The notes under the pieces are model-generated. The model was not told the origin of the DNA and made no database searches. It worked only from the letters and a program-made list of their open reading frames with translations. Position numbers and translations under genes: made by a program. Below, in pieces: positions 3,865-54,463 of a stretch of 64,000 nucleotides of DNA. The DNA is from Rhizaria sp. SCN 62-66. Lineage: Eukaryota. How positions within the stretch are numbered: position 1 is the first letter of the stretch; every line of letters begins with the position of its first letter. The stretch is from positions 1-64,000 of the forward strand of contig MEDY01000074.1 in NCBI GenBank assembly GCA_001724265.1, read 5' to 3'.

Positions 3865-6498
3865 TTACTACGTCATGTCAGATGCTTCTGCTTGACTTTT
3901 CTTCGAGTAGATATGAATGAACCTGAGAGCATTCAGGCTTCCTTGCTCAAAACCAGTTTCAATATTGCTTAGCGTTGGTCTACCCAGCTCACGCACGCGT
4001 GTCAGTGCCGGTGCAGTGCTGTTTGCGTTGTTTCTGTTACGACTACCACTCCAGCCCCGCTCTGTGTAGCATCGCTCGCGCCGATCTTTAAACCATTGGG
4101 GCAGCTCTTCATCAGCATTGTCCACCTTGCGCACAGCGCCATCTGCATTCAAGGTTGTGTTTTCGCCGACGTTTGCAGTTAAAGCTGCGGGTACGGACGA
4201 CTTGAAGCGCGCCTTTGCAGAATAGTACGCGGCTACCCGAAGATCGAAGCGTGACAGAGCGTTACGCGCGGCCTTGCGGTCAAAAGTTCCACTATCTACA
4301 ATCTGCTGAAGCTTTGCCACGTGTGCCACAAGATACGCCGTGGGGTCGAGTTTTTGCTTTGGCGTTGTGTCTTTACGTTCACTGCCATCTCTGTCATATG
4401 CGCTATCGGGGTCAGATGAGTCGTCCTCAAAGCGACCAAGCGGGTCGTACAGCTCGCCACCCTCTTCCCACATAGCTTCATAACGTAGTTGCTCGTGTTG
4501 GCGGTGCTGCTCATGCGCCGCCGCAGCATTACGTTCATTGCGTTCTTTTTGCTCACGTGCCGCCACACTTGCACGTAGCATTCCATTTACGCTTACATCA
4601 GAACCCATGCGAGTGGATACACCTGGCATAGGCCGGAGAGTCATCTCTGTCGTGCGCACAGCCGCTGCGGCAGCCGCGGTTGACGTGCGCCGCAGGGGCA
4701 GCAATCCGGCACGCGTGTTGAGCGGCGTGCGCTAGCCAAGCAGACTGCCTAGTCCACTGCTACTCCCACTGACGGTAATGCCTGTGGCGCTAAACCCTGA
4801 GAAGCCACGTGCGGGCTGTCTCTGAGGGGCTGCAGATGTTCTTAGTGTTGTGGCAGCTTTGAGCGGAAATGATGTGCGGGCATTACCACCTACTTGCAGC
4901 AGATGCAGCGGAGCGGCAGAAAATCCACTCATCGAGTGCGTAGCAGTCAGTGACGGTGAGCGTTGTGGCTGTGCGCACTTATTTACATGCTGTGACCCTA
5001 GCTCAGGCGGCTCAGCCGCTACGGCAAGAACAACCTCAGACAGTGAACACGTCACAGATGGAACATCGGCGGCGTTTCTAGCAAGCTGTGTCCTTGTCGC
5101 ATCATCAATGTTGCCACAAGCTCGAACTTCAACGGTGCCAGCCGGCAGTACTGCTAAACTACTCTCTGGCGGAGTGACGATAATTGCCATATCGCGCTCT
5201 GGTACAAAGGCGAGATATGAGTCCGCAGAGCCTGCAAGAATGTGCTGCGCAAGTGTTCTGACCTCAACGCCCACGTTCTCAGCAGGAGGCTCGGGCCATA
5301 CCCAGTTGCGCGAACAGTTCCCGTCTTCACCACAGCGCGCGGCAAACGGTGTGAGTCCACCTGCAGCGAATGCGCTGCGCTGGAGCTCCCAGAGAGCAGC
5401 TTGTAGCTCGGCAAAGCGCACGAGCAATAACGTCTCAAACCCTTGCAAGACAAAGTGCAGTGCGTCGTCTTGCGGCGGCGGAGGCACGGTTGGCGCAACG
5501 TCCGCAGCGAGCTTAACTAGCGGCGATGCCTGCCGCTGAAAGCGTTCGCTATCGAAGTCGGCGAGCGAGTGTCCGCCGTACGGGGTGAAGCGCCTGCCAA
5601 CAAGATGCAATGAGCTTTGGCTCGCCACCAGCATTGTGTCACACCACCTGCCGCGGATTTGCGCGCTAGTGGGCAGCGTAAGAGCCCCAGCTTGCCAGAC
5701 GTCACCGCGCCACAGTCCAGTATAGGCGGCGCCACTGGGGTACGCCATGTTGCCCGTGCCTCCGCGCATCGTGCCATGCACGCCGCCGCTGTAGCTTCCC
5801 CAGTCAGGATGTTGAGCAAGTACAACGTTTCTAAGTGTGTCAGCAACCCACACCCCCTCAACACTGTGTCCGTGAGAGTGGCGCGCGAGCCCTGCGCCGG
5901 AACGCTGACCATCACGCCAGATACCTGAAAACGTGCCTTTACCTGTGCTATCTGTGCGCTGCGCCCAACCGTGCAGAAGGCCTGCGCGCCAGTGTCCGCT
6001 GTAACGCGTACCCGCTGCGTCGCGGTACTTGCCTTCGCCGTCGCGCCGGTCGCTGCTCCACGTGCCGCGGTACTCCTCTTCAGTCGCGTGAAAGAACAAG
6101 TTGCCCTGGCCGCAGCGCTGGCCGAGCTCAAAGCCGCCCTCATAGCTCACTACAACGCCACCAGGCAGCACATAACGCAAACGACCGCGACCGTGCGGAT
6201 GGTCTTCAAACCAGTCGCCAATGTAGACTGAGCCGTCGGGGTAGCGCTGCCGACCGAAGCCGTGACGGCGGCCAGCGCGGAAGCTGCCGCGGTAGGTGCC
6301 AGAGACCGGGTCTGTGAGACAGCCTTCGCCGTGAAAAAGCCCACGCTTCCAGTCGCCACTGTAAGTTGCCCCAAACGGCCAGCGGCACATTCCGCGACCC
6401 GAGAAAAATCCGTCTTGCAATGTGCCAGTGAAGACGGCGCCACCAGGCAACGCATAGTGCAGGTCGCACGACAGCATTGCCATGGGGGAAATTGACAT
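3865..6498 (-). CDS. MORN-repeat protein (paralog 2), about 877 aa, joined across in-frame TAG 4732-4734
   Basis: N-terminal MORN array (YSGDWKRGLFHGEG, YIGDWFEDHPHGRG, YRGTWSSDRRDGEG). ORFs 4732-6498 and 3868-4704 share one frame and are separated only by a TAG. The frame ends ACG TAG TAA, with TAA at 3865-3867. Confidence 0.8.
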
Positions 6499-21205: not shown

Positions 21206-21807
21206 GCGGACTCAAAGGACTCACGCAAGGCTGCGGGCAGACGTGCTCGTGCGGCGGGGGGAAGAAGGGTTTGCTGTCAGGACGCGGGTTGAAGGAAATA
21301 TAAAGAAAAATGACGTGAGTGTCGACTTGACCCAAGGTTTACTGACAGGATTACGCAATAAATTGCATGTTCTAAGGATTTTTACGAGCGATTCCAAGTG
21401 CAACACAATTTAAATAGTTTCCAAGACGACTAACACCCGTAACCAATTCCATGTGCACATGAAAAACGAGATAGAAGTGAACGACCCATGCTGGGTTGCA
21501 GGTGCACTGGATCGATGATGCAATTTCTGTTTGTCAGTAGTTGGCATGCCAGGTTCCGTCACAACAAATGCTGTTAATACTGAATACTGATGAATCAAGT
21601 TCATTCATTACATTGAAATTAAAGCTTAAATGAAAATCGGGATGTCTCAGTTACACACTTGATCTTCCACAGATCCCAAGCTTGACTTCGATAGATTTCG
21701 GGGTGCTTTGCGACACCGACGTTTTGATCTCGTTCTTGACAATGTTAACTTTTGACTCGGCCAGACTCACATTTTCTTGTTTTATCTTGCGCGTTTTATC
21801 AGGATTT

Positions 21808-23322
21808 ATGTCAATTAGGCCTTCTGAGGGTCCAGAACCTGTCCCACCCGACCTTTCAAGCATTAGCGACCCGTTGCCGCCAACCGCCCCTCACGGCGCG
21901 TCAGCACCCGCACTCACTCCCACAGACACGAGGACAGTTCCAGCGGGTGCCGAGCCTGCGCACACACTGTCCCGCGCTGCGCGCCGGCGCCAGCGGCGTG
22001 AGAATCTCCGTCTGCGCGTCGAGACCATCGCTCTCGAGCGCGCGCTCCAGCAACATCACAACAGTATCAATAGCAACAACAGTAACAGCGACCGCGGACA
22101 TTGGGAGCAGCAACACGTTGGCGACCGTGACGACACGCAACAACGCCACTCTTTTGTTTCCGGCGGATATGATGCACATGCGCGCTTAGACGCACAGTAG
22201 ACCAACTCTCCAGTGTCAGGCCGAAATAGCATCAACACACAGATCAACAACACTACCGATTCAGAAGAGAGCGCACACGCACCGCCGGCACAACTTACGC
22301 AGCAGCCACAGCTGCACTCCACCGACCCCGGCGTGGGCAGCCCCCGCGACCCGCGCGATCCTCGAGCACGCCGGCTGACAACAACAGCAACAGCAACAGC
22401 AACAGCAACAACAACACCTACAACAACACCAGCAGCATCAACCCCGCATGTGCACAACTCTTCAGCACTATCTTCATTCGCTGCGCTGCCTGGCGCTGAA
22501 GGCATCCCCGGGTGGTCTGCGCTCCTGCCGCTGGCCGCTGCTGCAGTGGCACCGCCGGGCGCTGCCGTGCTACTGACTCCACATGCACTCTCGGCGGCTA
22601 CTATTGACCCGCAGTTCTCATTGCCAGGACTTGATGACGGCGTCCTCAGCTCCACAGCCGGGCTAGCGCCTCGCTTTGCTGCTGTTGCTGCTACCGGCTA
22701 TATTACCGGCGCTGTCACGGCTACTGAGATTGCGCACGGTGCTCGTGCCGGCGTCGCCATGAGTGAATCGATCGATAGTGCTGTTACGTTGCCAGGATTG
22801 GAGGATATTCCTGGCTTCGGGTTTGTGCCTGCAAGCCACGCTACAGCACCCGACAGTCGAGTCTCCACTGCGCATCCACTGGCCACTGCGGTGGGTGTTT
22901 CTGAGGCAGAAATTGCGACTGCGAGCGCGAGTGCCAATGCAGGCCGGGGCCGCAAGCGTACTGTCCCTTCCGACGACACTGACTCTGGCATCGCTGCTGT
23001 AAGCGAAAAGTCACGCAACAGCGCACAGCTTGACATTAACACAACGGGATATCACTCGCATGCGCCTCTGGCGGGCGCAGTGGGCGACGATCCGGCTGGG
23101 GAGCAGGGGACAAGCTGGAGCCACGCTGCTCTCGAACAGGATGCAGAAGAAGAAGAGGTTGACTTAGAGTCGTTCCTATTCCCTTCGCGGCTTGTGCGGC
23201 GCAATACGCGTCTTAACCGCAGCATTCCGCTGCCCGATGATGTCTCTGCGGTGCTGGCGGCCGAGGCTGCGGCCGAAGAGGCGCTTGCGGCAGCAATCAA
23301 GCGACGCAGGCGGGCTCGGTAA
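21808..23322 (+). CDS. Hypothetical low-complexity protein, about 504 aa, with basic NLS-like stretches, joined across in-frame TAG 22198-22200
   Basis: ORFs 21682-22200 and 22213-23322 are the same frame (..GCA CAG TAG ACC AAC TCT CCA GTG..). GC-rich coding composition is continuous. Basic stretches RRRQRR, GRKRT and KRRRRAR. Ends at TAA. Confidence 0.65.
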
Positions 23323-25273: not shown

Positions 25274-25857
25274 CACACTGTGGGGACGAGCAAGAAGCGG
25301 AGGGGTGGGCGAGGAGCGGTAGGAGAGCAAGAATAAAAGATAACGATTAACCAAGAGCAGATTTAGTTATTATAGAACACTCAGTACAGAATGATTACAT
25401 CCATTCTGTCGTATCCAGCCAATACACACCCGTTCAGCGATTGCAGATGAATTTTCATTGGGGCATGGAGGACGACGTAACCCGAGAGATTTTAAGGGAT
25501 ACTATCATGATAAAGACAGTGACTGAGCGGCTCAGAATAACTGTTCTTAATTCATCACTATTCACGAACTTTGGAAGATTCACCCGCAGCTCATTGTGAC
25601 GAACATGTGAGCTCACAAGATGGCTGCAATATCTCCCTTCACTTCCCCCACCGCAGAGCCCGAATCCACCACCAACGACTGGCCAATGTGACAATTTCAG
25701 GGATACACACTTAAAATATCCAGGTCAACGTTTAAAAATGCAAAATACAGATTTTATCCTCCAAGGCCTTTGTTGAAAAGTGGCTTTTTCCACAACTGAT
25801 GATAATAAATAGTCACATCTCGACCATATTCGTCGTCGTTAGTTACGATAGTCACGC

Positions 25858-37866: not shown

Positions 37867-38903
37867 CAGGCTCAACGCCCTGATCTAAAAGTGCAACGTC
37901 GAATGTTATTGATTATGTGAGCGTAAAAGACATCCAAACCAGAATTCGTCAAAGCAACCAACGGATCTTATTTAGGCGTACCTATAAAAAAGGTTTTCTT
38001 GCTCTACCCCACGTTTAACACGGAGACATATGCCTTCAAAAGCGAGTTGTCAAATGGACTTGATGCACAACAAACCCGGCGAGAGGTCTAGGACAGAGAT
38101 TCAAAGCAAACAGACGTGTTATTAAAATGGCTGCAAGTTTGGGTGAGATGATATATCAGCAGCTGTGTAATTACGCAATTAACGATCAATTCCAACTGGT
38201 GTCGTGCCTCCAAGTCAAGGGTCAAACAATGCGATACTGCGGAACAACAAATGTGGTGAGCAACATATCTCGGAGAAAGTGCTGCACTTCTTGCTGCACT
38301 TTCAAATGATTCTTTATATATCCAGTAAAACATACGTTAAAAAAACGACGTTTAAGTTGTACATATAAAATCATTGTGTTCTTACTCCGAAATTTGAGCA
38401 CGAAATAAGAGTCCGATGTTTGTTTGCTGAGGAGCGCAGTCCAACTTGAAGACAACGGTCGAAAAACTCACAGTCACTTTCTTGCTGTGCCAAGGCGCAA
38501 CTGAGGAGAATAGAGAAAGTGTATCATATTATTGGGGTGTGTATTATAATAAAAACGAAAATAATAAAAATAATAATTTTTGTGGTAAGGCCAGCCAATA
38601 AATACCTCGAGCGGTGCCCACGTGCAGCCGACATTTACTTTGTCAGCCGCACTCGCGAGCAACCGCTGCGTCTCGCTCGCTGTTGCTGCTGAAACCAAAC
38701 GATGTTTGATTTTGTGAGTGTTTTGTTATAAACTTTTCTTGTTGTTGAGCTACCGGCGCAAAAAAAAAACAACCGCGCAACGGCAGAAAACAATAGAGAG
38801 TTATTACTACGTGCTATGTAGTTTCGGAGGATCCCCTCCTTGCATCATCCATCCAGTCGCTAAAAAAGAGCACGAAACCGAGCTCAATCAATCGCTTGTT
38901 TGC

Positions 38904-40385
38904 TTACTGCATCTTAAAGAAGTCGTGGACGTCACTGGGGACGTTGCCGGTGGCGACCTCGGTACGGCGCAGCAGCGTGAGATTGGGCTCAGCGTGCGTC
39001 GCCTTGGAGACGACGTAGTGCTCGATCATCACCTGCAGCTCCATGGGCGAGTAGCGCTTGGTCTGCACGTGCGTGCCAGCGCGGTCGTGCATCTCCTGCG
39101 CGTTGTTGGACGGGAAGTTGCGCATCGAAGTGGCGACGATAACGGCACCACGGCGCGGCGGGCAATCAATAACGTTGGCAAGCGCATCGACGCCGGCGAG
39201 ACGGCGCGCGGGCAGCTTCGTGACACGCTGCGGGTGCACAAAGTCGGAGAGCATGTCCATGCCGTTGATATTATCGATGGCAAAGAGCACGGGCACGGCC
39301 GTGGTGTGCTGCAGTTCCCAATAGAAGGCGTAGAGAGCCTCGGTGGCGAGATCGGTACGCCACGCGCCGAGCGCGCAGAGGTCGAGCAGCGTCGCGGGCG
39401 CGGCCGTGGGGCGCGGCAGCGAGTCCTTGGCGGGGAACGGAAGCGCGATGCGCGCGTCGGCGTCCGTGAGCGGGGGCTCGAACATCGGGTGCTGGGCACC
39501 GGCCCAAGGCCACGCGGCGTAGTCGCCCTGGAGCGGGATCTGCGACAGAATGGCCGAGTTCTCCACACCGAACTTCTCGAGGAACTCGCGCGAGAAGAGC
39601 GGCTGCGTGAAAACGTGGGGGCGCGAAGCAGAGGGCTGGATCAGACCCAGGGGGTCACGCGCCCAGGTGTCGATTGACGTGCCGACGACGAGCCAGCCAG
39701 CGTGCCGGGCCCACTCGGCGGCGTAGGCCAGAGTCGTCGACTTGCCCGTGCCGCGGTGGCCGTAGATAATGGCGAGGTTCTTGGCGGCGGGCGCGTAGCC
39801 CGTCTCGCGCGAGGGTGGGAACGGCAGGCTGATGTCGTTGCCGTTCTCGCGGAGGAAAGTCACGGCGTCAACCATGGGTTGGCGGACGAGCATGAAGCCG
39901 TGGGTGAACTCGAGCTCGCGCGCGATAGCGGGCAGCAGCGGCGCAGGGATAAGGTCCTTGTTGACCTCGTAGAGACTCATCACGTCCTCGGGACTGTGCT
40001 CGAGGATGGACTTGGTCGTGTACTGCTCGAGCGCCTGCACGCGCTGCTCCATCGTAGGCGGCGTGCGGAGGTAGTCGGCGAGCTGCAGACGCGGGTTGTT
40101 GGCGTTGGTCAACGCCTTGCGCGCCTCCACAACGGCCTCAGACATCTTGCGCTCCACGTAGCCGCGGCTGCCAAAGCGCGCAGGCACGGTCACGGGGGTG
40201 GCCGCCGCCGCGGCGCGGGCCTGCACCGAAGACGAGAGAACGGAAGACGAAAGAGACGCGGACGCCATCGTCGAGGCGTAGGCCTTGGACGAGACGGTGG
40301 GCATGGCGCAGCCCGCAGCACGGAAGAGCGTGCGCGCAAGCGACGGGCCGGCGAAGGCCTTCTTCACACCAATGCTACCAAGCAT
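38904..40385 (-). CDS. DAP3: Mitochondrial small-subunit ribosomal protein mS29 / DAP3
   Basis: N-terminal Arg/Ser/Ala-rich presequence. GFMLVRQP, P-loop IYGHRGTGKSTTLA..A...GWLVV, VPVLFAIDNIN, TGNVP. Ends at TAA. Confidence 0.85.
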   Translation of the reverse strand: MLGSIGVKKAFAGPSLARTLFRAAGCAMPTVSSKAYASTMASASLSSSVLSSSVQARAAAAATPVTVPARFGSRGYVERKMSEAVVEARKALTNANNPRLQLADYLRTPPTMEQRVQALEQYTTKSILEHSPEDVMSLYEVNKDLIPAPLLPAIARELEFTHGFMLVRQPMVDAVTFLRENGNDISLPFPPSRETGYAPAAKNLAIIYGHRGTGKSTTLAYAAEWARHAGWLVVGTSIDTWARDPLGLIQPSASRPHVFTQPLFSREFLEKFGVENSAILSQIPLQGDYAAWPWAGAQHPMFEPPLTDADARIALPFPAKDSLPRPTAAPATLLDLCALGAWRTDLATEALYAFYWELQHTTAVPVLFAIDNINGMDMLSDFVHPQRVTKLPARRLAGVDALANVIDCPPRRGAVIVATSMRNFPSNNAQEMHDRAGTHVQTKRYSPMELQVMIEHYVVSKATHAEPNLTLLRRTEVATGNVPSDVHDFFKMQ

Positions 40386-40627
40386 TGGGGCGAGCTGTCC
40401 CTGCACAGTCAAGCGTGGGGAAACACAGTGGGCGAGTGGGAGGAGGTGAGGTAAAGTCAATCGAGCAAAGGGAAGACGGTCGTGAATAGATGCAGCACAA
40501 AAATATGGTATGTCCTTTGACAGATCACATCTAAACATTTTATTCACATGTTAACAAAAACTTGGTGTAGCCTCAAAAGCCGGTTTGTTCGAAATCCTCT
40601 GCGCACCTAGCCCTTAGAACGACCAGT

Positions 40628-40656
40628 GACCGTGAGCAGCCCTTAGAGCCGGTCTG
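40628..40656 (+). promoter_or_regulatory. Candidate bipartite element GACCGTGAGCAG-N6-GAGCCGGTCTG in the DAP3/CWC18 divergent promoter
   Basis: Identical words to 14945-14986, roughly midway between the two ATGs. Confidence 0.4.
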
Positions 40657-40872
40657 ATTCCAGCTTCTTGTCTCTCTTAGGCCCAAATATAACTCTACTC
40701 AAACGAAGTTTTATTACAAAATCATATGCACAGTTTTAAATACTTATCTTTAATTTCATCACTATTGACGGATCTTAGGCTCACATACGCTTCACTTTTG
40801 CTCTCCTGGCCATAGCCGTTCGCGTTCTACGTTCCTCTCAATTCGCTCTGGACTCTCCCTCAATCAAGGACA

Positions 40873-41370
40873 ATGAGCAAGAAGGCCGCTATGGACGACC
40901 TTGACGACGTCACTCTCCCCCGCGACCGCTCCGAAGGCGCCACTGGTGCCGCCGACGCCGCCACCGACGGCAACGACGGATCCTCAACGGATACCTCGTC
41001 TTCCTCCGACTCATCTGACTCCGACTCAGACTCCGACTCCGAGACCGAGGCTGACGGGGCCAAGGTGCAGCTCAAGTTCCGCAACTACCGCCCGTTTGAC
41101 CCCAAGCTGCAGCAGTTTGTCGTCCCGCCCGCATCGGCCGCGGCGGACCTGGCGTGGCTGAACGAGGAAGTCAACGCCGTCGTCGCCCGCGCCCGCGCCT
41201 CCGACACCGCTTTGCTCAACATCGCGCCCCGCCCCGCGGACTGGGACCTCGCGCGCGACGCTGCGCCGCGCCTCGCAGTGCTTGCTGCGCGCACGCGTCG
41301 CGCCATCGCACTCGCGGTCCGCGATAAGATCCGCGCCGCCAACGCCGGCAACAACGCCACCTCTGCGTAA
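40873..41370 (+). CDS. CCDC12: Cwf18/CWC18 (CCDC12) pre-mRNA splicing factor
   Basis: LKFRNYRPFDPKL and LLNIAPRPADWDLARD..PRLAVLAARTRRAI match the cwf18 family. Ends at TAA. Confidence 0.88.
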   Translation: MSKKAAMDDLDDVTLPRDRSEGATGAADAATDGNDGSSTDTSSSSDSSDSDSDSDSETEADGAKVQLKFRNYRPFDPKLQQFVVPPASAAADLAWLNEEVNAVVARARASDTALLNIAPRPADWDLARDAAPRLAVLAARTRRAIALAVRDKIRAANAGNNATSA

Positions 41371-41724
41371 GCCATCAGCTCTGTCACCAAACGCGTGTTT
41401 TCTACACCACATGATACCAGCCATGAGCTGAACCCGTGTATTAGAAACTGTGCGCTACGTGTTGCACGTGCGACCACTGTGATATGGTTTCATGTTGCCT
41501 TAGGGCAAGTGCAAACCGTGTCAGTCGACAATCGACATTACATAGTCTTCATTATAAGTCTTCTACTTAGCTTTCTAATCAATAATCCATCAATAAAATG
41601 TGTGTATATTATCCGCACAAGCTCCTTCGAGTCGGACAATCGTATATCTATGTATTGAAGCCTTATCTGGCCTCGCCATATCGCTATGTAAAATTAGTCA
41701 AATTGTGATCATGTAGCGTTACAG

Positions 41725-44448
41725 TCACTGCATGTTGAGCCGGTAACTGCGCGCAGCCTTCGCCAGGCTGTCCGCCATCTCGCGCTGCATCTGCGCGGCG
41801 CGCGCTGCCTTATCAGCACGTTCACGCTCTTCTTTGCGCGCCACACTTCTCTCGAGCGCGCGCTGCGCCGCCAGTGAGCGGTCACGCTTCGCCCGCGCAG
41901 CCGCGTCAAGCGCGAGCGCTTGCTCGTAGTTGCGTCGCTGCAGCAGCACCCACTGCGGCGCCATCGGCTGCACGCTGGGGTCCTCGCCCTCACCTGCCGC
42001 GTCCGCGCCTTCCTGAGGCTCAATTGCGGCGGTCGAACCACGCTCAGCGGTCTGCGGCATCTGCAGCAGCTCAGCGTCGCCGGGCCGCGCAATGCCCGCC
42101 ATAGAGCGCGTGATAGCCGTGTATAGCGGCGCGTGAGCCGGGGGGCACGGTGGAGGCGGCGGGTCGATGGCCATCTGCGCCCGCAGCGGCGGCGGAGGCA
42201 TCGGACAGAAGTGTGCACGTTGCGGCGCGCGAGCGGGCTTCAGACCGCCATTCACCACCGCATTAGAACTATGAACAGCAGCCGCTGCAGTCTTGCTCTT
42301 GCTGCTCTTGGCCTTGTGGGCGCCCTTATGTCCAATATCATCGCCGCTGTCGTCGCCACCGTCGCCGTCACCGTCAACATCAAGACTGCTCAGGTCCAGC
42401 TTGCTCAGCCGCATATGCGGGTGCACATTGGCCTTCGCAGCAGCCGCAGCCGCAGAGGCCTTCGCCGCTGCCGCCGCACTGCGGGGCGCTGTGCGCGGAC
42501 GGTGCGGCCGCTCGTACGACCGCACAAGCCCCTGCGCCCGCATCGCAGACTACGATTGCGGTTGACCTTGCGATCGCGACGGTGATTCCCACTGGCGGAT
42601 CGCCTCAACGCGCGCGCGGACTGCGACGTCGTTCGCATTCGCGCGCGCGTCGTAACGCGATACCTTGCTGTACGCCACCGCCGTCCGCGGCGCCGAGTTG
42701 GGCCGGCCACTCGCGCTGCTCGGCCGCTGCGCGTGGCCCCAGGCCTCGCCGACCGTGCCCGCGCCGCACTTGCCAGTCGCAGCGCTTGACTCGGTCTCGC
42801 CGCGCGGCATCGCGGCCCCCGAGATGACGGCGACGGCGCGCGCAACGGCCTGAGCGCGGGCGTGGGTGCGCGCAGCAGTCGTCGCAGTGTCACCGTACGC
42901 GCGCACGGCCGTGGGCGTCGCATCATCACCACCGCCGTTGCCAACGCCGTCATCAGCCTCACCGCGCTCATGGTCACTGCCGCGCGAGAGCGCCGCTGCT
43001 GTGGAGCCCGCGGTGGGCGGACGGCGTGCGGGCGCGGCGGTGAGCAAAAGGGGATCGGGTCCGTGCTGGGTCCAACGGGGGCGGCAATCCAGTGGCAATG
43101 GCCCACGCGGCGGTCGCGATTGCGACGGCGACGACGCGAGAAACGCAGCCACCGCAGTGCCGGCCGCGGGCACGGAAGCAGCGGTGCCAGATCCGCTCGC
43201 TGCGGTGGCAGGAACGGCAGTGGCGGGGCGCGGGCGCGGGCGTGGGGCACTGCTGAAGGAGTCGCTGCCCGCAGTTGGCGCTGCGGTTTGGGGCCGTTGA
43301 CGCGCGCCGGGGCCGTGGCCGTTGTTATGGCTGTGTGACGCTGTGTTGGAGCCAGTGGTCGACTTGGGCAGGTCAGTGATGAATTCGTTCTTGATCGACT
43401 CATGAAGCTAAAAACATTAAAAACAAATCAGCACATTTTAATTGAGCAAAATCGATTGATATTAGACACATTGAAATGCATTTTGATGCGATGTAGGAAA
43501 TATTCGTGTTAAACGCACCTCGTCCTCCTCGCGCTTGCGCTGCATCTGCGTCTGTGCGTGCATACGTTTCGCCGCCGCAATCTCCGCCGGCAGCGGCCAC
43601 CGCGCGCGCACGTCCCGCTCAAAGCTCAACACAGCGCGCGCGCGCTCCTCGTAGTTCTCGCGCAGCGCCGCGGCCTCTTCGAGCAGCTGCTGTTCAGTCT
43701 CCTGGTTTTGCAGCAGCGATCCCCAACGCGACTCGGCGTAGCCCAGCGGCAGACCGCGCGGTGGCGGCGGCCGACGGCGCTCCGGCGTCGACGGGCCCGC
43801 GTGCGCATGCGCGGGCACGGACGCAGGCGCGGCAACGGCAGCGGGGGCGGCAGACCGGCGCGCGCCCGCAGTCGCAGGGCGTGTTTGTTGTTCTAGTTGC
43901 TGCTGTTGCAGTTGCGCTTGTTGCGTTGACTCCTGCTGTCCACTCTGCTGATCTTGATGTTGCTGACGGCGCTGCGCGTGTGACAAGCCCGGTGCAAGCC
44001 CGAGCCTGTGGTGGCGTTCTCGCTCGACGCGCGCGCGCTAGGCCCAGCGCGCCGCCTCCAGCAGCCGCGCGTGGCGCTCAGCAGCGCGCTGCTCGGATCC
44101 GGGGTGCGGGCGCGTCGCATCGGCGATGCACAGCGCGGGTGACACGTTCAGCGCGAGCGCGGAGAACGCCGGGGACTCCGCCAGCCGTGCTGCGATGGCC
44201 TCATCCCACGCCGCGCGGCGGCGCTCAGCGTGCTCAAGCCGCGCACGCTGCGCGCGCTCGCGGGCGGACCGCGGCGGCCGCCATGTGCGCTGCGGCTGCC
44301 GTCGCAGGCCGTGGCCATAATCGTAGTCGTCCTCGTCGTCTTCGATGCCTGCGAACTCGATCCCATCATTAACGCAGGCGCCGACGCCGTGATTATCGAC
44401 GGGCTGCGACTCGGGCTGTTGCCGCTGCGGCTCTCGACGAGCGTACTC

Positions 44449-44509
<61 letters not shown>

Positions 44510-46260
44510 GGCGCGTACTCTTGCTGATGCTCAGGCTGTTGCTGTTGTTGGTAATGTTGATGATTTGGCTGCTTTTGTTGCTGCGGTGACGCGTTGCGCA
44601 TGTTAGCGCCTGTGTCTGCGGGCAGCGCGCGGACAAGCGGGCCCAGCCGAGGGTCTTCAAACAACAATGGCCGCAAAGTCTCGTTTGCACTGACACCAAC
44701 ATGCCCAGTCTCACACAGTTGCTGTTGCTCCTGTTGTTGCTCCTTTTCACGTTGGAGCTGCTTCTCGCGTTCGAGCTCGCGACCGCGCGCAAGCCACAGC
44801 TGCCGCGTGATCGCAAGCTCCCGCGCAACAGCCTGGTCGCGCTGCAGATCCCGCTGTCGCTCGCGCTCGCGCTCGGCTTCCCACCCGCGCAGCTCAGACA
44901 TGTCGCGCGCCGGCGGACTCAGCGGCTCTGCGCGCGGTGAAACTGCCGTTGGTAAAGTTGCCGCCGGTGGGCCAACATGCGGGTCTGCGGGCCGCGGGCC
45001 GGAGCTGGGAGTCGCGGCGCACTGGCCTTGTGTAGCTTGTTCCGTATGCGCAAGAGTCTGAGGCTGCGACTGGGTGTGAACCTGTAAAGACTGTGGCTGC
45101 AAGCGCGTCTGGGGCTTTGCGGGGGGCGTGTGTGGCTGTGTTGGCGAGTGCTGTGCTACTGGCGAGTCGGCGGGACTCGGAGTGTCGTGATACTGTTGTG
45201 CTAACGCATCATGGAACATGCTCATGTCGCCACGCATCGTAAAGTCGCTGCGCATATTGGCAACACCATCGCCTGTCGGTTGTAAGCTGTCCTTACGTTG
45301 TTTGTCGTCGTTGTGTTGCGTGTCAGCGTTACGCACTTTATCATCCGCAAGCCACAAGTCTAAGCCACCCATAGCAGCGCCCAGCCCAGTCTGCTGGCCA
45401 GCACTCGGCTGTTGCGGTTTAATCAACAAGTGTTGACTCGGCACCGGCGTTAGCGTCGCGCCAGAGTCCAGAGCGGCACTCGCATGCGCACTCGCTGCTG
45501 CGTTCCTGTCCTGCGCTTGCACTTGCCTCGAGCGATCGCCTGCAGCCGCAGCCGCAGGCGCAGCCGGTGCAGGAGCAGCGTCGCGTGCAGGCCCCACAGT
45601 GGGCGCGGCTGTCGCCGCCGTAGTGACCGTGCGCGCAGTGACCGGAGACTCAGCCGCCGGCTCAGGGGCCGCGACCAACACTGCCGCAGTCGTCGCAGTC
45701 GCCGCTTCTGGCGCGGCAGGGGGCCCAGCGGCATCAAGAGGCTTCGCCTCAGCTTTCACCCGCTGCGGCACTGACGCGGCTGCAAGCGCGGAAGGCGTCG
45801 ACGCGTCCGGCGAGGGCTCGATAGAGCCCACTGGAGCGTATGCGTCATTCGCAGCGTTGTAGTTGTAGCCATAGTCCATTGCATGCGCGTGTGCGTGCGC
45901 GTTGGCGTGGTCCAAGTCATCGCCGTAGCCGCCGCCGTAGATGCCACCGAATCCGCCGTAGACGTCGCTGCCGAAGACACCCGGCGCGGGGTACGCGAAG
46001 CCGAACGCGGCGGCGTCCTGTGACGCTGACAACGCTGAGGCCGCCGCAGTCGGAGGCGCAGACGAGGATGAGGACAACAACGGCGCGAGCGAGAGCCCGC
46101 CATGGGAGCCCGCGGCGTTGGCCGAGTATGCGGTCGTGGGGGCGCCGCCGTAGAGGTCGTAGGCGTGCGTGGCGAAGACATATGTATCGCCGCCTTCACC
46201 GTCAGCCTCGCTGACGGTTGCTGGGGCGCTTGTGTTGGCGCCACCAGGGTTGAAGGACAT
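41725..46260 (-). CDS. Large Gln/Ala-rich hypothetical protein with coiled-coil segments, about 1474 aa; exons 46260-43519 and 43407-41725; two in-frame TAGs
   Basis: Four track ORFs join in frame through TAG 44038-44040, intron 43518-43408 (GTGCGT..TTTTAG) and TAG 42550-42552. Ends at TGA. Confidence 0.7.
44449..44508 (-). repeat. CAG/CAA microsatellite encoding a 20-Gln tract
   Basis: (CTG)n run on the + strand inside the CDS. Confidence 0.9.
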
Positions 46261-46921
46261 CGTGTCTCAGCGCTGGCGGGGCAAGTCAGAGCGTGCTCAA
46301 TATGTGTGTCCTAAACTGTCAGTCCGCTGTGCGCCGTGTTTTGTACGAGTCAGACGTGACGCAGGGCTGCCTATCGTAGGGAGACAGAAAGAAGGTTTGA
46401 TAGCCGTTATTCCCTTGTGTGACTCGAAAGTTGGACCCTGCGACATGAATAGCATAGTCAAAAGTGTAGTTCGGGTTTGTTATGGGATACTATAATATAC
46501 ACAGCATAATAGCGCCCTGGCGTATCATATGAACATTCAGCCGTCATATGCATATGAATTATCAAGACGCTCAAAGTTCAGTTGAGCCACTTCCCTCTAT
46601 TAGGCTGGAGAGAAGCCAACATCGAGACTGTGAAACAAATAATTAAAAATAACCAAGCAATAATAGATTACGCCGTCGGTACACGTGTCCTTTGGGAAAT
46701 GACGATCAATTTCGCGAGAAATAGACTTCCAAAATCGGGCCTAGCAGCAGACTTGCCTCATGTGCCTCACAGCCCGCCAAGCCGAGCAAGCTCGAAATGA
46801 TTGTATCTCAGCTATATAGATCAACTTACGTAGTAAGATATTGTGTAACCTATAATACTACGCACTTCCTTTACTATTACTTTATAGGACCTCTAGAAAA
46901 GCACGATAAGCACCTCAGACG

Positions 46922-49900
46922 ATGTCTGACGCGAGCACTACCTCTTCTCGCGCGATGTCATCAAGTACACCAACCGCCTCACCGCGCACTCGAACGACAG
47001 AGCGTGCCAATTTTGATCTTTATGGCAGTGGTATTACATTTAACGATCTATTCGACGAGCTCCCGGCCGCATTCGGCGCATCAACGCCCGCGCGCGAGGC
47101 CGGGGCCGCCCTGGACAACGATGCCGCAGGTCACACGCTTCACTCTGCGCACCCTGTCACAGCTGCGTTGAGTCCAGACATCGCGTCGTTTCTTTATAAC
47201 CGCAACGCGCAGTCTCTTTTCCAGCCGGTCGGCGGTGCCGTCGGATAGTTTCCTAGCTCCACTGCATCCCCCAAGTGCGCCGCTAGCCCCGCCGGTGGTG
47301 TGGCAGCAGAGAAAGCTGCAGCGAACTCGGCCACGCCGAGCAACGCTGTCACTGCTGCAACATCCGCCGCGGCGGGGGTCTCTGCGTCGCCTTCCGCGGG
47401 AGCATCTCGCGCAGTTGCGGCAGGTGAGTCGGGTTCCCTGGCTGGCCAGGCCAACACGTTTGCGAGCAGCAAAACCAACGCCATCAGCAGTGAAACCACA
47501 GATGCTGCTGCCGCGTCTGACCACGAACACGAGAAGCAAGATGCACCCACCAAGAACGGCACTTCCACGTCTACTCGCGGTGTTTTGCGCTCGCCGTCAC
47601 AGTTACAGTTGCAGCCACAGGCGCAGTCTGATGATGGCGATGGTGACGCTGACAATGCGACTGCAGACGATGCAAGCCCCGCAGACACCCAGACCGAAAG
47701 CAGCCACAGCGCTGCCGAAAACAGTGGCAGCGCTGCCCAGACTGATCTTAGTCGCACTGACAAGGTCAAGACTAAGAGCAGCAGCACTGCCAAGGCCAAC
47801 AGTGAGAGTTCCGGTGGTGTTAATACTGCGGACAGTGGCGAGCTGTTGTTTGCGCGCGGAGGCACGAGCAAGAAGAGCAAGAAGTACGCACATGCAGCAA
47901 CGGGCGATACTGACGGTAAGAACTCGGACAAGAACGATGCTGCCGCTGCCTCCGCCACTGCTGCCGCTGCCGCTGCTGCTTCGAGTCCGGGCCTCGCGGT
48001 GACTGAGGACACGGCGCGTATCCGTGACGCGTTAGTGCGGGACACGGCCGAGAACAGCAAGAGCAGCCGCAAGAGTAGTGCCGACAAGAACAATGCCAGC
48101 AAGAACGACGTCACCAAGAGCAGCAACAGCAAAAGCAGCAGCAGCAAGAGCTCGAGTAGCAAGAGTGCGGGTAACGAGAGCGCGCGTGACGCGGCCGCCG
48201 AGAGCGCCGCCAAGAGCGGCCGCGGACAAGCAATGACCGACGGCGACGACGATGTTGACGACAGCACTGCTGACGGTGGCAAGGCTGTTCGTGATGATGT
48301 TGAGTCGAAGAGTAAGCGGCGCCAAAGCAAGGTCGCCGCCGCCGCAGCAGCTGCAGCTGACCCTATGTCTGACGGTGACACACACTCCGACAAGGTCGTT
48401 CGCGCGAATAGCAACAGCAGCAGCAGCGACGCCGCTGTCGCCGCTGTGGCCGCCGCCGCTCTCCCAAAGGCGGCCGCAGTGGTAGGGGCCTCCCCCGTGA
48501 AGGCGCATCGCAAGTCCTCGGCCAAGGCAGCCGCTGCCGCTGTTAACGCAGACACTGAGGCCGAGGCGGGCGCTGACGCTGCTGCCGCGCCCGCAGCGAA
48601 GCGCAAGAGCTCAAGCAAGGCCTCCGCAGTCAATGTGGACAAGACAGAGACCAGTGTGAGCCGGACGGCCAGCGGGGCCTCGGCTGCATCATCGCCGGCG
48701 CTTCCAGCAGCGACAGGAAAAAGGTTGCCTGCGCTAGTGGGTGATGTCAGCTACCTGCTGGTGGCCGACCACGACGCGAACATCTTCTCAGCTTCGCGCG
48801 GTGGCTCCCAGTCCAACTATCACTCCAGCCAGTCCAGTGCGAGCTCTCATGGCACGGACGAGGCGGTCTTTGGGAAGAAGATCAAGGGTCACAAGTCTTC
48901 GGTCAAAACGCCTCAAGCCAAGAGCCCCAGTCGTGGCAAGCTCGCTCGCGTCGACGGTGCGGGCGAGCAGAGTGAGAGTGGCCGCGCCAGTGACCGCGAG
49001 GAAGGCGACGACGGCAACGATGGTGGTGATGACGGCGGGATTGACAGCAAAGACGGTGTGAAGGTAAAGTCCGAGCCCCGCGTCAAGTACGAAGCCCGCA
49101 TCACGAGCGCGCGCAGCCTCGCCGCCGCCGCCGCGCACGCCGCCGCCCTCGCCTCGCCGCCCGGCCCGTCATCGGCGATCTCGGCGTCGACCGTGGCAGC
49201 AGTGAACCCTGCGCAGCAGAGCCCCAGTGCATCGGCGCCGCGGGCCGAGTCGAGCGTGCTGCGCGACGAGTTGCTGCGCAAAATTGCTGCGGACAAGGCC
49301 GCCGCGAAGGCGGCCGCGGACAAGGCCGCGGCGGCGACTGCGAAGACTGGTGCCGCGCCTAAGACGCCGAAGCTTCAGGCTGACGTCGTGGCCCGTGCGC
49401 GGGCCAATTCCGCTAGGGCCAGCGCCAGCGCCAGCGACGCTAGCGACGGCGTGGGCGATGACGAGTCTGGCTCTGACAGCGACGCCGAGTCCGACGCCGA
49501 TACCAAGAAGAACGCTGCGAGTCGGAAACTCACCAAGGAGGAGAGGAAGGCTGCCGCTGCTGCCAAGGCGGAAGCCAAGGCGGAGGCCAAAGCGGCTAGG
49601 GAGGCCGCGAAGGAGCAGGAGAAGGCAGATAAGGCCGCCGCCAAGGCACTGGCGCTTGCCGCGAAGGCCGCTGCCCGCGCCGCTGCTTTAGAGGCTAAGG
49701 AGCAAGAGAAGGCTGCCAAAGCCGCGGCGAAGGCGCAGGCTAAGCCCCCGCCCAAGACGCCCAAGACTACGCTTCACTCGGGGAGGAAGCGATCTTCAAC
49801 CGCCGCTGCGGCTGCCTCTTAGGACGACGTGTCTGACTCTGATAACGACGAAGTCGCGACTCCGCAGCAGCAGAAGAACCACAGCAAGAAAGAGCGCGAG

Positions 49901-51067
49901 ACCGCCGATTCCGCAGCGGCCGCCGCTGCTGCCGCTGCCGCCGCTGCTGCCGCTGCCGCCGCTGCTTCTGCTCTCAACGGCCCGGCTGTGCAGTCGCCGT
50001 AGCTCCAACCACAGCCGCAGTCGCGGTCGCAGGAGTTTTCGCTGACACAGGCGTTCACCTTCTCGCAGCTGGCTCTGTCCCAAGGCCTGGACGACGGCGC
50101 GGACGCCGCCTACGCCGCTGCCGCCGCTGCCGAGGCCGAGGCTGAGGCGCAGGCGCAGGCAAGCGCGGCGCCAGAGTCTGGACGCCGTGTGCACAGTCGC
50201 AAACGTGCGTCGCAGGGTGCGTCTAGGCTCGCGGGCGCTGCTGCGGCTCCGGCGGCGGCGGCGGTCGAGGATGAGGAGGAGGAGGATGGTGAAGGTAAGG
50301 TCGAGACTGAGCCGGATGCTGATGCCAAGGCTGACGCGAGGGCTGAGCGCAAGCGTGCCAAGCGTGCCCGCAAGAGCTTGCTTGCTGCTGCCGCCGCTAC
50401 TGATGCTGCTGCTGCCGCCGCGCGTGCTGCGGAGATTGCTCGGGCATATGACGAGAGCGGTCGCAGGGCGTATCCTCGTGGCGATCCTCTTGTCGAGCTC
50501 CCGCGTGCGCGCAACGACGCCCCTCTGGACCTCAGCGAGTGGGGCATCTTTCCCGCCGAGTCCGCGGCCGCCGGCAGCGTTGGCGGCGCGTGCGCGTATA
50601 AGCCGGTGCCGGGTTTCTCGACCGAGCTGCTGCCGCTGGCGCCGATGCTGCAGTACGTGCCTGGCGAGGGTCACTGCGTTGACGCGGCCGCGCTCGCGCG
50701 CCTCCGCGCTGGCGGCCCGCGCGCGCAGCTGGCGCTGGTGCAGCGCGCGCTGGAGGGCTACCCCGCGAACGAAGTGGGCGTGGCCGATGCAGCGCGGGTG
50801 TACCACGACTGGATCGCGCCCGCGACCAGCAGTGCCATTATCGGCGCCGTGTCTGCGTGTGACTATAGCGCGGTGTACGCGCGCTACTGGGCGCGCGTTG
50901 ATGTGTTGTGCCGCGTTGAGGCCACAATGGGCCGCGTCATGGAGCCCAGCCGCGCTGCTGTGCGCAAGCTGGTGTTGGCGTTGAGTGAGGCGAATAAGGC
51001 ACTCTGTGTTGTCGCCACGTTCCACGCTCAATCGCTGGCTCAGGGACCGGTGGGGGGCAAAGCGTGA
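46922..51067 (+). CDS. Large Ser/Ala/Lys/Asp-rich hypothetical (probably nuclear) protein with a folded-looking C-terminal domain, about 1381 aa; three in-frame TAGs
   Basis: Track ORFs 46922-47248, 47300-49822 and 50189-51067 are all the same frame. The only stops between ATG 46922 and TGA 51065-51067 are TAG at 47246, 49820 and 50000. Confidence 0.75.
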
Positions 51068-52165
51068 CTTGTGGGTGAAATTACTCTCAAAAGGTTGTAA
51101 TGTGGTTGGCATGATGTAAAGAAATGATACTTAAACATTATTTAAATACTTAGTCCAAAAGTGGCCAGTGGTATGAAGTAAAAGTCAACGAGGCAGCGAC
51201 TACGCGGCCACTTGAAAATCTCGGTTTAATCGTCATGTTGAATGAATAAACGAAGGTTAGAAATACGCTAGCTGTAGTATTGCACGTGTATAGGGGTGTT
51301 CTTTTGTATTGATGAAGAAAAATTTGCGCGTGCCCATTTATCTCTCTCTAGACATTCAAAACATATCATGTTGTCCTGGCCAGCACAAAAAAAAAAGTCG
51401 GAATTCTAGAGTATCTCAGGATGGTTTTGCATGACAACAAATTAACTAAAATATCCACACATAATTTCTACCAAAACTGTTGACGTCGTGGTTTTATATT
51501 ATTATATTTTTGTGCTGCACTGCGAGGTCCGCTTTTGTCGCTAATCTATCGAACTGTCCTTCAGCTCTTGACTGGCCTTAGGTTGAATCAGGAATATCTG
51601 TCAAAGTGTGGTTGGCATGGGACAAAATGCAATGTAGTCAGATGTTTCACGCGTGTTTCACTCTATATCTGCCAATTATATCGTAGATCATTCATTACTT
51701 GATGTCCGCACGCGTAGGGAGCGCGACATGACCGGGTCTTGGCCTCAAGTCGTTTGAAGGATCCTACTAAGTTTCTGCATCGTAATTCCAGCCTCCTGGA
51801 CGTATGCAGTTCATTTTATAGCAATGCCAACATGATCATACGTGTTATGTTTGTTGTCGTTAAATTATATGATTAGATGTCTCCACGATATTGTTCTGTA
51901 GGCTTGGATGTTCTTGGGAACCAGACACGTGCTACCTCCTTCGTGCGCAACTCACGATGCATCAGATTTCATCCTTTATTCATGCATCTAACGCAATGCA
52001 GCGCCGCTCATTTGTACCTCACTCGTTTTAACACTGCAATCATACTTGGATTTCTTAGAACACCGTCTTATACAGTCGGTGTCGTCATCCCCACTCAGCC
52101 TAGTCCCTGTTCCGTCGCGCGTCGGAGCCCCCGTCCAACCAAAGTCGTCGCGGCAAGCCCGCTTC

Positions 52166-54463
52166 ATGTCCTCTCCTCGCGCCGCCGCTGTCCCCGCAGC
52201 CGCGCTGTCTCTTGCCCCATTATCCCTTGACACGCCTCCCGTCGCGCGTGCGGCCGCACCCGCCGCGTCCGCCGCGTCTGCCTCTGACTCCAAGCCCAAC
52301 AAGTCCAAGTTGCCCACCTCGGTTCTGGAGCTCTTCTACGGCCCCGCGGCGGGCGACCCCATTGCGTTCCGCTCTCTCTGGGCCGCCGCGCTGTGTGACG
52401 GCGATGACGACCTGGTTCACGACGCCATCGCCGTCACCGACGCCGTCACCCGCCTCCTCGCCCGCGCGCCAGTACTGGCTCTGACCGCACCTGCCGCAAC
52501 CCCAGACCCCGCCGCGCCGGCCCTTGCCCCCGAACTCGGTTCCGCAGACGCACCTTTGCTCGTGCCCGCCGCTGCGGACGTTGCACTAGTCGCCAACACG
52601 CATCTCTCCGCCGCCGATGCCGACGCGTACGCGGCCGCTGCTGAACGTGTCGCCGCCGCACGCGCCAACGCCGCGACCGACAACCCCACAGCTGGCGCGG
52701 TCCCTGGCTCGCCCGACGTCGCGCCCGCCTACCCGCGCGTGCGCTGCAACGCCGACGGCACTGGCCCCGCTTTGTTTCCGGCTGTTCTCGCCGATGCACT
52801 TGTAGCTTACGTCACCGCAACAGCCGCACCTGGATCAACTCTCGCGGACGTCGCCGCCGCTGCCTCCGCCGCTGCCGCTGCCAAGGACGCCGCGGCGGCG
52901 CAGGACGTGTTCGACGCCGTGGCTACCGCCGTGGCCGGCCCGTTCCCTGTCGTCAGCGCCAATCCAGCATCAGCTGCAGCAGCGGGGCGTTGGCGTTGGT
53001 CTTCTGCGTTCCTTTGGTCCCTGGCGACCCACCGCGCGCTGTACGACCGCCCCCTGACTAGCGGCGACTGCGTCGTGACCCGCGTCGCCCTGTCAGGCCA
53101 GGCGCGCACACTTGCGCTGCTGCTGCGGCTGCCGTGGAGCCGTCCCGATGCCGCCGACCGCGCGCTCCGCCGCACTCCGCTCAACGCCGCCGTGCGCGCC
53201 GTCCAGGGCCCCGCGCGCCGCGTGCCGACCGCGCAACGGGCGCACCTGGACCGCATGCCGCACGCCTACGCCTGGATTACCACCACGACGCGTGAGCGCG
53301 CGACGGAGGCGGACCGCGCGGCGGGCGCGGCTGTGGACGAGGACGGGATGGTAGTCCGCGAGCTTCTCTCCCCGCCGCCGCTCACACGGCCCGCGTTTGA
53401 GTGGCGAGTCGGGGACCTGGGCGCCGGCAGCAGCAGCGGGAAAAAGCCCAAGAAGTCCCCTGAGGCGCCCCGCTCGCGGCTGACTGATCTCTTCGAAGCC
53501 ATCTGCGTGCTGGCGCTGCACGGTGCGCGGCTTGACATCAAGGACCGCACGGGAACCACTCCACTCGACGCGGTGCCGGCGAACTCTCTGTACCGCCTCG
53601 CGCGGTGGGCGCTGCGGCTGGGGCTCATCAAGGCCCGCGTGCGCGCGTTCACCGTCGCACGCGCGCTCCAGGCCGCGCTGGGTGCTGCGCTGGGGTTATG
53701 CTCGACCGAGTCTAGCGAGCAGTGGGCGCCGCCGACCGAGCCCGGCCGCGTGCCGATCGCCGCTGTGCGGGCAGGCGCTGGGTGGGCCGTCGCGGAGGAC
53801 ACGCGGGATAAGCTGGCGAAGCGCGCCAACGGGTTCCGTATCGGCGGCATCAGCAACAACTTCAACTCGGCCGCCAAGGCCGCGGCGAAGGCAACTGAGA
53901 AGCCCGTCACTGTGCGCCTCGCTGCGCTTGCCGGCGCCGCGCCTGACCCACGCAAGAGCTCAAACAGCAACAGCAACAGTATCAACGGGAGTAATGGGCC
54001 GAGCGCGAGCCCGCGCGCGTCGCCGGGCCGCAGTGCCAGTGTTGCAAGCACGGGCGGCACGGGCACCATGACTCTGCTGACGACGGCCGCGAGCGTGGCC
54101 AGCAAGGCGCAGCGCAAGGAGGCCAAGCACGCGCGCCGCGAAGGGCGCAACTCCGACGCGGACTGCGCGGGTCCCGCTGGCGGCGGCGGCGGCGGGGACG
54201 GGGATGGCGACGAGGACGCCCCTGAGCGCGGCAGAGCGGGCGCGGCGCTGATGCCGCACGGCGCCATGAGTGGCGACGCCGCCGAGGCCGCCGTGGCCGC
54301 GGTGGAGGACGGATGGGCGCTGGCCGGTGACGCTGGGGACATGGTGACCGTGGTGACTCGGCTGGTGTTGTCGTACGCGGCGCAGGATAAGTACGAGGCG
54401 GACAGCAAACTGCCTTCCAAGCTGCCGTCAACCATGCTGCAGCCTCTCATGGGCAATCTGTGA
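52166..54463 (+). CDS. Ala-rich protein with divergent ankyrin repeats
   Basis: SGQARTLALLLRLPWSRPDAADRALRRTPLNAAV and ICVLALHGARLDIKDRTGTTPLDAV are ankyrin-like. ATG 52166; ends at TGA. Confidence 0.65.
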   Translation: MSSPRAAAVPAAALSLAPLSLDTPPVARAAAPAASAASASDSKPNKSKLPTSVLELFYGPAAGDPIAFRSLWAAALCDGDDDLVHDAIAVTDAVTRLLARAPVLALTAPAATPDPAAPALAPELGSADAPLLVPAAADVALVANTHLSAADADAYAAAAERVAAARANAATDNPTAGAVPGSPDVAPAYPRVRCNADGTGPALFPAVLADALVAYVTATAAPGSTLADVAAAASAAAAAKDAAAAQDVFDAVATAVAGPFPVVSANPASAAAAGRWRWSSAFLWSLATHRALYDRPLTSGDCVVTRVALSGQARTLALLLRLPWSRPDAADRALRRTPLNAAVRAVQGPARRVPTAQRAHLDRMPHAYAWITTTTRERATEADRAAGAAVDEDGMVVRELLSPPPLTRPAFEWRVGDLGAGSSSGKKPKKSPEAPRSRLTDLFEAICVLALHGARLDIKDRTGTTPLDAVPANSLYRLARWALRLGLIKARVRAFTVARALQAALGAALGLCSTESSEQWAPPTEPGRVPIAAVRAGAGWAVAEDTRDKLAKRANGFRIGGISNNFNSAAKAAAKATEKPVTVRLAALAGAAPDPRKSSNSNSNSINGSNGPSASPRASPGRSASVASTGGTGTMTLLTTAASVASKAQRKEAKHARREGRNSDADCAGPAGGGGGGDGDGDEDAPERGRAGAALMPHGAMSGDAAEAAVAAVEDGWALAGDAGDMVTVVTRLVLSYAAQDKYEADSKLPSKLPSTMLQPLMGNL

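Follow-up and report, generated by a model that had tools for sequence, protein, structure and literature searches.

Does TAG end translation in the organism that carries this DNA, or is it read as an amino acid, and if so which one? The question is raised by contig MEDY01000074.1 (assembly GCA_001724265.1, Rhizaria sp. SCN 62-66), of which we analysed positions 1 to 64,000, hereafter the window. It is 64 kb long, has a GC content of 61% and contains long open frames on either strand. When frames are read from TAA or TGA to TAA or TGA, seven TAG codons fall inside five of the long ones, genes B, F, L, M and N. According to our analysis TAG is very probably a sense codon here, and we put the probability that UAG is both sense and read as glutamine (Gln) at about 60%.

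TAG as a probable sense codon

Downstream of the seven TAGs (4732, 22198, 42550, 44038, 47246, 49820 and 50000) the frame stays open for 287, 373, 274, 191, 857, 59 and 354 codons, respectively. The expected spacing of stops in a random frame, computed from the base counts of the window, is about 32 codons, and after 17 terminal TAA or TGA codons of long genes the frame remains open for 1-55 codons only. A codon-usage score was trained on the 12 long genes of the window that lack TAG. All 12 of the 12 segments flanking a TAG score above zero in the TAG frame and below zero in the two remaining frames, and the score of 16 stretches past true stops ranges from -0.22 to 0.31, centred near zero.

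The 21 gene models, i.e. the long genes and four short conserved genes, end with TAA (10) or TGA (11), and in this small sample none requires TAG as its end. A scan of the window for coding-looking open reading frames (ORFs) with a TAG end yielded nothing but antisense frames of known genes and the intron of an adaptor gene. Among 14,974 codons there are seven in-frame TAGs, no in-frame TAA and no in-frame TGA, and no pair of same-frame coding ORFs in the window is split by TAA or TGA. The code change seems to concern UAG only, with TAA and TGA kept as stops, which is a rare kind of reassignment.

If the TAGs arose by nonsense mutation in genes that are decaying, as polymorphisms among strains or through errors of assembly, translation would stop at them. 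In favour of such an origin, TAG is the commonest outcome of a random nonsense mutation with this codon usage (58-61%) and the affected proteins are poorly conserved. However, seven TAGs out of seven then has P = 0.02-0.03, the coding scores continue in the same frame downstream, the window has no TAG terminators, and identical TAGs are present in contigs from other studies that carry single-nucleotide polymorphisms (SNPs) elsewhere. We regard this explanation as very improbable.

The contigs in question come from public sequencing runs. The stretch 41700-51100 is carried by metagenome runs from bioreactors, wastewater and activated sludge; at least half of its sampled words are found in four runs, of which one may be that from which the contig derives, and X3 and X4 belong to other studies. 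Runs X6-X8, with small word shares, are excluded from this statement on habitat. Reads and contigs of the other runs were compared over 38000-54600. The DNA contigs of X3 match without difference over kilobases, and those of X4 and X5 differ by scattered SNPs. None of the 29 listed strain SNPs creates or removes a TAG, and the contigs of X3, X4 and X5 have no SNP at any TAG that they cover; record 14 of X4, for instance, covers the TAG at 47246 without change. X5 is a polyA metatranscriptome library. Its record 19 (42383-42780) spans the TAG at 42550 unchanged and unspliced, as does a DNA contig, record 2 of X3, again with the TAG unchanged. Record 22 of X5 (49633-49909) spans the TAG at 49820 unchanged and with no joint. 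The parts of genes M and N downstream of their TAGs are also covered by X5 contigs. Among the pieces listed no RNA contig crosses 44038, 47246 or 50000, which carries no weight either way.

Two public proteins correspond to pieces of the TAG-bearing genes, P0003 (174 amino acids) to gene M downstream of its TAG and P0048 (588 amino acids) to gene B upstream of its TAG. Because standard gene callers split genes at TAG in this manner, the public proteomes of the organism are mis-annotated.

Another way to dispose of the TAGs is to place each of them in a short in-frame intron, or between two adjacent independent genes. Introns with a TAG end do occur in this organism, and one of them, in the clathrin-adaptor small-chain (AP-sigma) gene, keeps the frame, so that its TAG was initially taken for a codon within the gene. 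In addition, gene L has an ATG two codons past its TAG. Against introns, a GTRMGT 5' splice motif within 300 nucleotides (nt) upstream and a T-rich tract are absent at all seven TAGs, and the RNA-library contigs span two of the sites unspliced. Both signals are present in the AP-sigma intron, the only one that could be checked by the scan, and an intron in the SPX-transporter gene has like splice signals as judged by eye. Against adjacent genes, the translated parts of M, N and F past their TAGs are long without a Met, and gaps of 0-6 nt between eukaryotic genes would be implausible. We consider both versions extremely unlikely.

A third possibility is that UAG has no dedicated transfer RNA (tRNA), or has a dual meaning. 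It would then be an avoided, weak stop that is read through by near-cognate tRNAs, perhaps with termination persisting in some contexts. One such context could be the end of gene B, whose final codons are ACG, TAG (3868-3870) and TAA (3865-3867). This end can be read as Gln-stop or as a tandem stop, and it makes gene B the sole gene of the window in which TAG could terminate. Very low usage (7 of 14,974 codons) restricted to low-complexity regions fits with read-through, and the context-dependent codes of Condylostoma and Blastocrithidia, as described in the cited part of PMC5304391, provide a precedent. On the other hand, TAG is needed as an end in none of the 21 genes, and five of the 21 would depend on read-through for 190-860 codons that score as coding. 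Such an incomplete decoding of UAG is improbable in our estimate.

A sequence-only reading of this DNA had claimed that UAG is translated, and that it means Gln and not Leu, Tyr, Glu or Trp. The first half has good support from the open frames, the coding scores on both sides of the TAGs, the lack of TAG terminators and the unedited TAGs in RNA-library contigs. The second half is not established by context, see below.

The seven sites and their genes

Gene B (3865..6498, minus strand) encodes a MORN-repeat protein, and its TAG (4732..4734, minus strand, context SLLG*RTPL, where the asterisk marks the TAG) is located in a linker of low complexity that connects two parts of higher complexity. 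The adjacent MORN-repeat genes at 364-2499 and 3865-6498 (minus strand) are paralogous in the repeat region only, with 37% identity over 241 amino acids; the alignment of genes A and B covers the MORN repeats only and nothing at the TAG. In gene F (21742..23322, plus strand, counted from the first ATG, with a TAA end and no Pfam family) the TAG at 22198..22200 (plus strand) has the context DAQ*TN and is followed by the 373 open codons given above.

Genes L and M are on the minus strand and neither has a Pfam family. Gene L (41725..43407, TGA end at 41725-41727) encodes a low-complexity protein, in which the TAG at 42550..42552 (minus strand, SQGQPQS*SAM) prolongs a (Gln-X)3 repeat in phase. 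In the contigs of other runs the gene carries a 3-nt GCA insertion at 42919, in frame, and there is a 6-nt insertion in the intergenic sequence at 41707; both are strain-level length variation in low-complexity sequence. Gene M (43462..46260, TAA end at 43462-43464) encodes 932 amino acids and has its TAG at 44038..44040 (minus strand, RWA*RARVE), with 191 open codons after it. The same gene contains 20 consecutive Gln codons at about 44440-44520 (minus strand), a repeat stretch that was skipped when reads were laid on the sequence.

Gene N (46922..51067, plus strand, TGA end at 51065-51067) encodes about 1381 amino acids, rich in Ala, Ser and Lys, with a more complex C-terminal part. It has three TAGs on the plus strand: near its start at 47246..47248 (GAVG*FPSS), at 49820..49822 (AAAS*DD) and at 50000..50002 (SP*LQPQPQS), where the TAG begins a (Gln-X)n repeat in phase. 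A stretch of 108 codons that starts with the ATG at 46922 is scored as coding in the frame of gene N.

Five of these TAGs, at 22198, 42550, 44038, 49820 and 50000, had been quoted in the sequence-only reading, and all five are in place and in frame; those at 4732 and 47246, and the TAG-TAA pair at 3868/3865, come in addition. The likenesses on which that reading relied are also present. ERAQRARLE is found 70 codons before RWA*RARVE in the same frame (residues 668 and 738), SPSQLQLQPQAQS is at residue 224 of the frame that contains SP*LQPQPQS, and ASQD occurs in a neighbouring protein. The first of these likenesses exists at the protein level only; its two copies use different synonymous codons and hence are no DNA repeat. 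As had been said, Gln is mostly encoded by CAG (452 CAG and 171 CAA), which is one transition away from TAG.

TAG is thus carried by five of the 21 genes, is confined to low-complexity parts of long proteins and is lacking from the conserved genes of the window. In agreement with the earlier observation, no TAG falls in a Pfam domain of any window protein.

Which amino acid

The contexts that favour Gln are two of the seven only, at 42550 (QGQPQS*S) and at 50000 (*LQPQPQ), both in phase with strict (Gln-X)3 repeats. Among ordinary residues of the window 23 have such a phase context, and they include 6 Gln, 4 His, 4 Arg, 1 Leu and 0 Glu. Expressed as rates, these are 6/623 for Gln, 4/414 for His, 1/1069 for Leu, 1/1326 for Ser and 0/614 for Glu, i.e. 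about 1% of the Gln or His residues, compared to about 0.1% of the Leu or Ser residues, have the phase context. The likelihood of finding two of seven TAGs in it is about 100-fold higher for Gln than for Leu, with a pattern that was picked after being seen.

To what extent do the contexts as a whole agree with Gln? We used a position-specific naive-Bayes context model that covers offsets from -4 to +4, with the about 15,000 residues of the window as training set, and applied it to the 7 TAG sites; a model of local composition was used as well. In the first the aggregate scores are 1.1 for Leu, 0.04 for Pro, -0.16 for Ser, -0.41 for Arg and -0.87 for Gln. As a control, Gln came first in 73.5% of the trials in which seven true Gln sites were drawn at random. 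The observed Gln score corresponds to the 12th-14th percentile of the true-Gln sets and the observed Leu score to the 65th percentile of the true-Leu sets. In the local-composition model Ser obtains 1.59, Arg 0.91, Gln 0.58 and Leu -0.01. In both models the distance of Gln to Leu, Ser and Arg is at most about 2 nats. For Asp, Asn, Cys, Lys and Ala the observed scores are among the lowest 3% of the respective true sets, and these residues are unlikely as the meaning of UAG on this evidence. The contexts are compatible with Gln, and equally with Leu, Ser, Arg, Pro, Thr and Val.

Several of the results speak against UAG as a sense codon for Gln. Gln ranks only fifth of 20 amino acids in the naive-Bayes model and third of 20 in the local-composition model, below Ser and Arg. 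At two of the sites, N109 and N967, the Gln score is below -2.7, which is seen in only 3.9% of the true Gln sites. The repeat-phase pattern could also be a relic of former CAG codons in a disordered region that tolerates change, and not a sign of the codon's meaning; a CAG-to-TAG transition in such a repeat leaves the same trace whatever TAG now means. A search of the gene M protein against 1.84 billion representatives returned only its own downstream piece, P0003, and a homolog search with the C-terminal half of gene B only its own piece, P0048. The RNA-library contigs span no more than two of the seven TAGs, and DNA carry-over is possible in them. No match was obtained from a tRNA scan and an Rfam scan of the 64-kb window, and eRF1 is not among the Pfam-named proteins of its 21 genes. 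Finally, if UAG means Gln, TAG makes up 1.1% of the Gln codons (7 against 623). Because this usage is far below that of any described UAG reassignment, leaky read-through may be at work.

That UAG is sense and stands for another amino acid is possible but, in our view, unlikely. Leu comes first here and would be decoded by a tRNA-Leu(CUA); Glu, Tyr, Ser, Arg and His are other candidates. It is Leu that the naive-Bayes model ranks first, at a score typical of true Leu sites, and the TAG at 4732 sits in a Leu-rich stretch. Enrichment in the phase context of the (Gln-X)n repeats is as high for His as for Gln. However, the differences of about 2 nats over seven sites are not significant, the same phase context contains hardly any Leu or Ser, and five further amino acids are disfavoured as described above.

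Relatives and lineage

A further argument for Leu comes from the lineage. The transporter encoded in the window has named homologs with 40-48% identity in oomycetes (Pythium, Aphanomyces) and ochrophytes (Chrysoparadoxa, Ochromonas, Undaria); a further one in the same range of identity is a EukProt record that papers tie to a Paulinella transcriptome. Closer relatives of the transporter exon are P0006 (65%) and P0038 (60%), and the D123 protein has a relative, P0002, with 59% identity by BLASTP and 66% in an alignment. In a quick maximum-likelihood tree of the transporter the window, P0006 and P0038 form a clade with a Shimodaira-Hasegawa-like approximate likelihood ratio (SH-aLRT) support of 99. 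This clade joins the row of the rhizarian Paulinella (SH-aLRT 95), apart from oomycetes and ochrophytes. The tree is based on a single gene and a quick method, and long branches meet at the Paulinella join, for which the tool gave a warning.

From these matches the organism is probably a poorly sampled member of the stramenopile-alveolate-rhizarian (SAR) eukaryotes and possibly a rhizarian. The best match of mS29 among solved structures, chains of the Toxoplasma mitoribosome, and a hint of Ascomycota from the Atlas were not taken as taxonomy. The short transporter matches P0038 and P0044 were considered as proteins cut at a TAG of the relative, and this was rejected as both run into introns. 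A search of genome contigs for related DNA returned distant bacterial homologs only (21-29% identity, loci L001-L014).

The sole published rhizarian code change is, according to the cited part of PMC5304391, UAG = Leu. Since there is this precedent and the organism may be rhizarian, Leu is a live rival. Its support from the placement is weakened by the one-gene tree with its flagged long branches, and published reassignments more often led to Gln. In the cited passages of PMC5304391 and PMC11687900 it is the commonest meaning of a reassigned UAG. When this is taken into account, the odds for Gln, given that TAG is sense, are about two in three. Gln is the leading candidate and the most likely meaning of UAG, with Leu as its main rival.

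Proposed mechanism

If UAG is sense, a tRNA whose anticodon is CUA would read UAG and not UAA, and eRF1 would be poor at recognising UAG. For Gln this tRNA would be a tRNA-Gln(CUA), which is one mutation from tRNA-Gln(CUG). A tRNA(CUA) together with a change in eRF1 has likewise been argued for other UAG-only codes in the cited part of PMC5304391. The sparing use of TAG, in low-complexity sequence only, fits a reassignment that is young or inefficiently decoded.

Gene content and introns of the window

The window originates from the nuclear genome of an uncultured eukaryote, which is rich in GC and poor in introns. According to Pfam its proteins include two MORN-repeat proteins and a C2H2 zinc-finger protein, an SPX domain followed by a CitMHS/Na-sulfate-symporter domain, D123/CDC123, mitoribosomal mS29/DAP3, an EndoG-type nuclease, ribosomal protein eL36, a clathrin adaptor small chain and the splicing factor cwf18. 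The Pfam-named genes are a typical eukaryotic set. A TAG located 5' of the cwf18 ATG is in a leader position and was rejected as not coding.

Most genes of the window seem to be free of introns. Introns can be recognised at two places; both start with GTGCGT or GTACGT, contain a T-rich tract and end in TAG. One of them connects an SPX-domain ORF (17735-21211) and a CitMHS transporter ORF (16302-17636) into one gene at 16299-21211 (minus strand). This intron (17638-17756, 119 nt, phase 2, GTGCGT...CTAAC...TAG) was found by eye, and once it is removed the frame is restored across ...HK|CLALLVF. The fused SPX-transporter architecture agrees with that of the oomycete homologs.

The other intron, of 150 nt, is located at about 24797-24946 in the AP-sigma gene (24665-25366, minus strand). 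As it is in frame and contains neither TAA nor TGA, its 3' TAG mimics an in-frame sense TAG. The in-frame TAG of the AP-sigma ORF was rejected as a sense codon for this reason, being the 3' splice site, and the intron serves as a cautionary control for inferring the genetic code in this genome.

The high GC content gives numerous long antisense ORFs across the window. One example is the eL36 gene (15216-15707, plus strand, Pfam E 2.5e-26), opposite which a longer ORF of 294 codons (14877-15758, minus strand) is probably spurious. The EndoG/EXOG-like nuclease (Pfam E 1.5e-35; 13127-13714 and 13861-14709, plus strand) has an extra coding-looking upstream ORF in a different frame, probably an upstream exon across an intron.

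Comparison with known codes

The organism is a probable new member, with very low usage, of the known UAG-only variants of the nuclear code. In the literature searched, a UAG-only code is unreported in a stramenopile, in a second rhizarian lineage and in a wastewater protist, and a term search of the text of a 2025 paper on wastewater eukaryotes found no mention of the genetic code. More tentatively, it might represent the earliest stage yet seen of the takeover of a stop codon in a eukaryote, in a SAR protist from wastewater reactors. If this is true, UAG is already lost as a terminator and its use as sense is about 10 times rarer than in any described case and confined to disordered regions, and a comparison with the relatives (59-66% protein identity) would separate the codon-capture route from the ambiguous-intermediate route. 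The low codon usage would make it a useful case for how reassignment begins. Whole-genome evidence on the amino acid is needed ahead of applying any code table.

UAR = Gln codes (NCBI table 6) are used by many ciliates, hexamitin diplomonads, some ulvophytes, oxymonads and Amoeboaphelidium. The likeness is that a stop codon is taken over, there for Gln and here probably for Gln. In contrast to table 6, TAA here is the end of 10 of the 21 genes and does not occur in frame. Gene B, with its TAG-TAA end, could have a codon of two meanings as in Condylostoma and Blastocrithidia; in those organisms, however, the reassigned codon is also a regular terminator, while here TAG is needed as such in none of the 21 genes.

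Phyllopharyngean ciliates differ in another respect, as the nearest named homologs of the window are stramenopile and rhizarian. We also take a contig of at least 64 kb with 61% GC and 21 genes to be unlike a ciliate macronuclear genome.

Nuclear codes that split the meanings of UAG and UAA are, in the cited passages of PMC5304391 and PMC11687900, known from only a handful of lineages. UAG alone is reassigned, with UAA and UGA as stops, in Iotanema spirale (Gln) and the rhizarian exLh (Leu) according to the former, and UAG-only reassignment is reported for Hartmannula sinica and Trochilia petrani (Gln) and three phyllopharyngean ciliate metagenome-assembled genomes (MAGs) from TARA (Leu) according to the latter. 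As given in the same part of PMC11687900, UAG usage elsewhere is 6.5-32% of the synonymous codons, and about 80-90% of the genes carry one.

Hartmannula sinica and Trochilia petrani keep UAA and UGA as stops, as here, and their UAG accounts for 18.5-31.8% of the Gln codons and occurs in about 80% of the genes, far above the window (PMC11687900, part cited). The same stops are used by exLh, a member of Sainouroidea, and by the TARA MAGs (cited parts of PMC5304391 and PMC11687900). In exLh UAG is abundant (384 in 71 genes) and found at conserved Leu columns (PMC5304391, part cited), whereas here two sites are in Gln repeats.

Iotanema spirale, with the pattern of NCBI table 15, likewise has UAG alone in frame and UAA and UGA as sole terminators, and its UAG share is also low, about 8% of the Gln codons compared to about 1% here (PMC5304391, part cited). 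It is an anaerobic metamonad for which Gln was assigned from hundreds of conserved columns, whereas the window belongs to a different lineage and its candidate amino acid comes from context. The commoner stop is UGA here (11 of 21) and UAA in Iotanema, again according to the cited part of PMC5304391.

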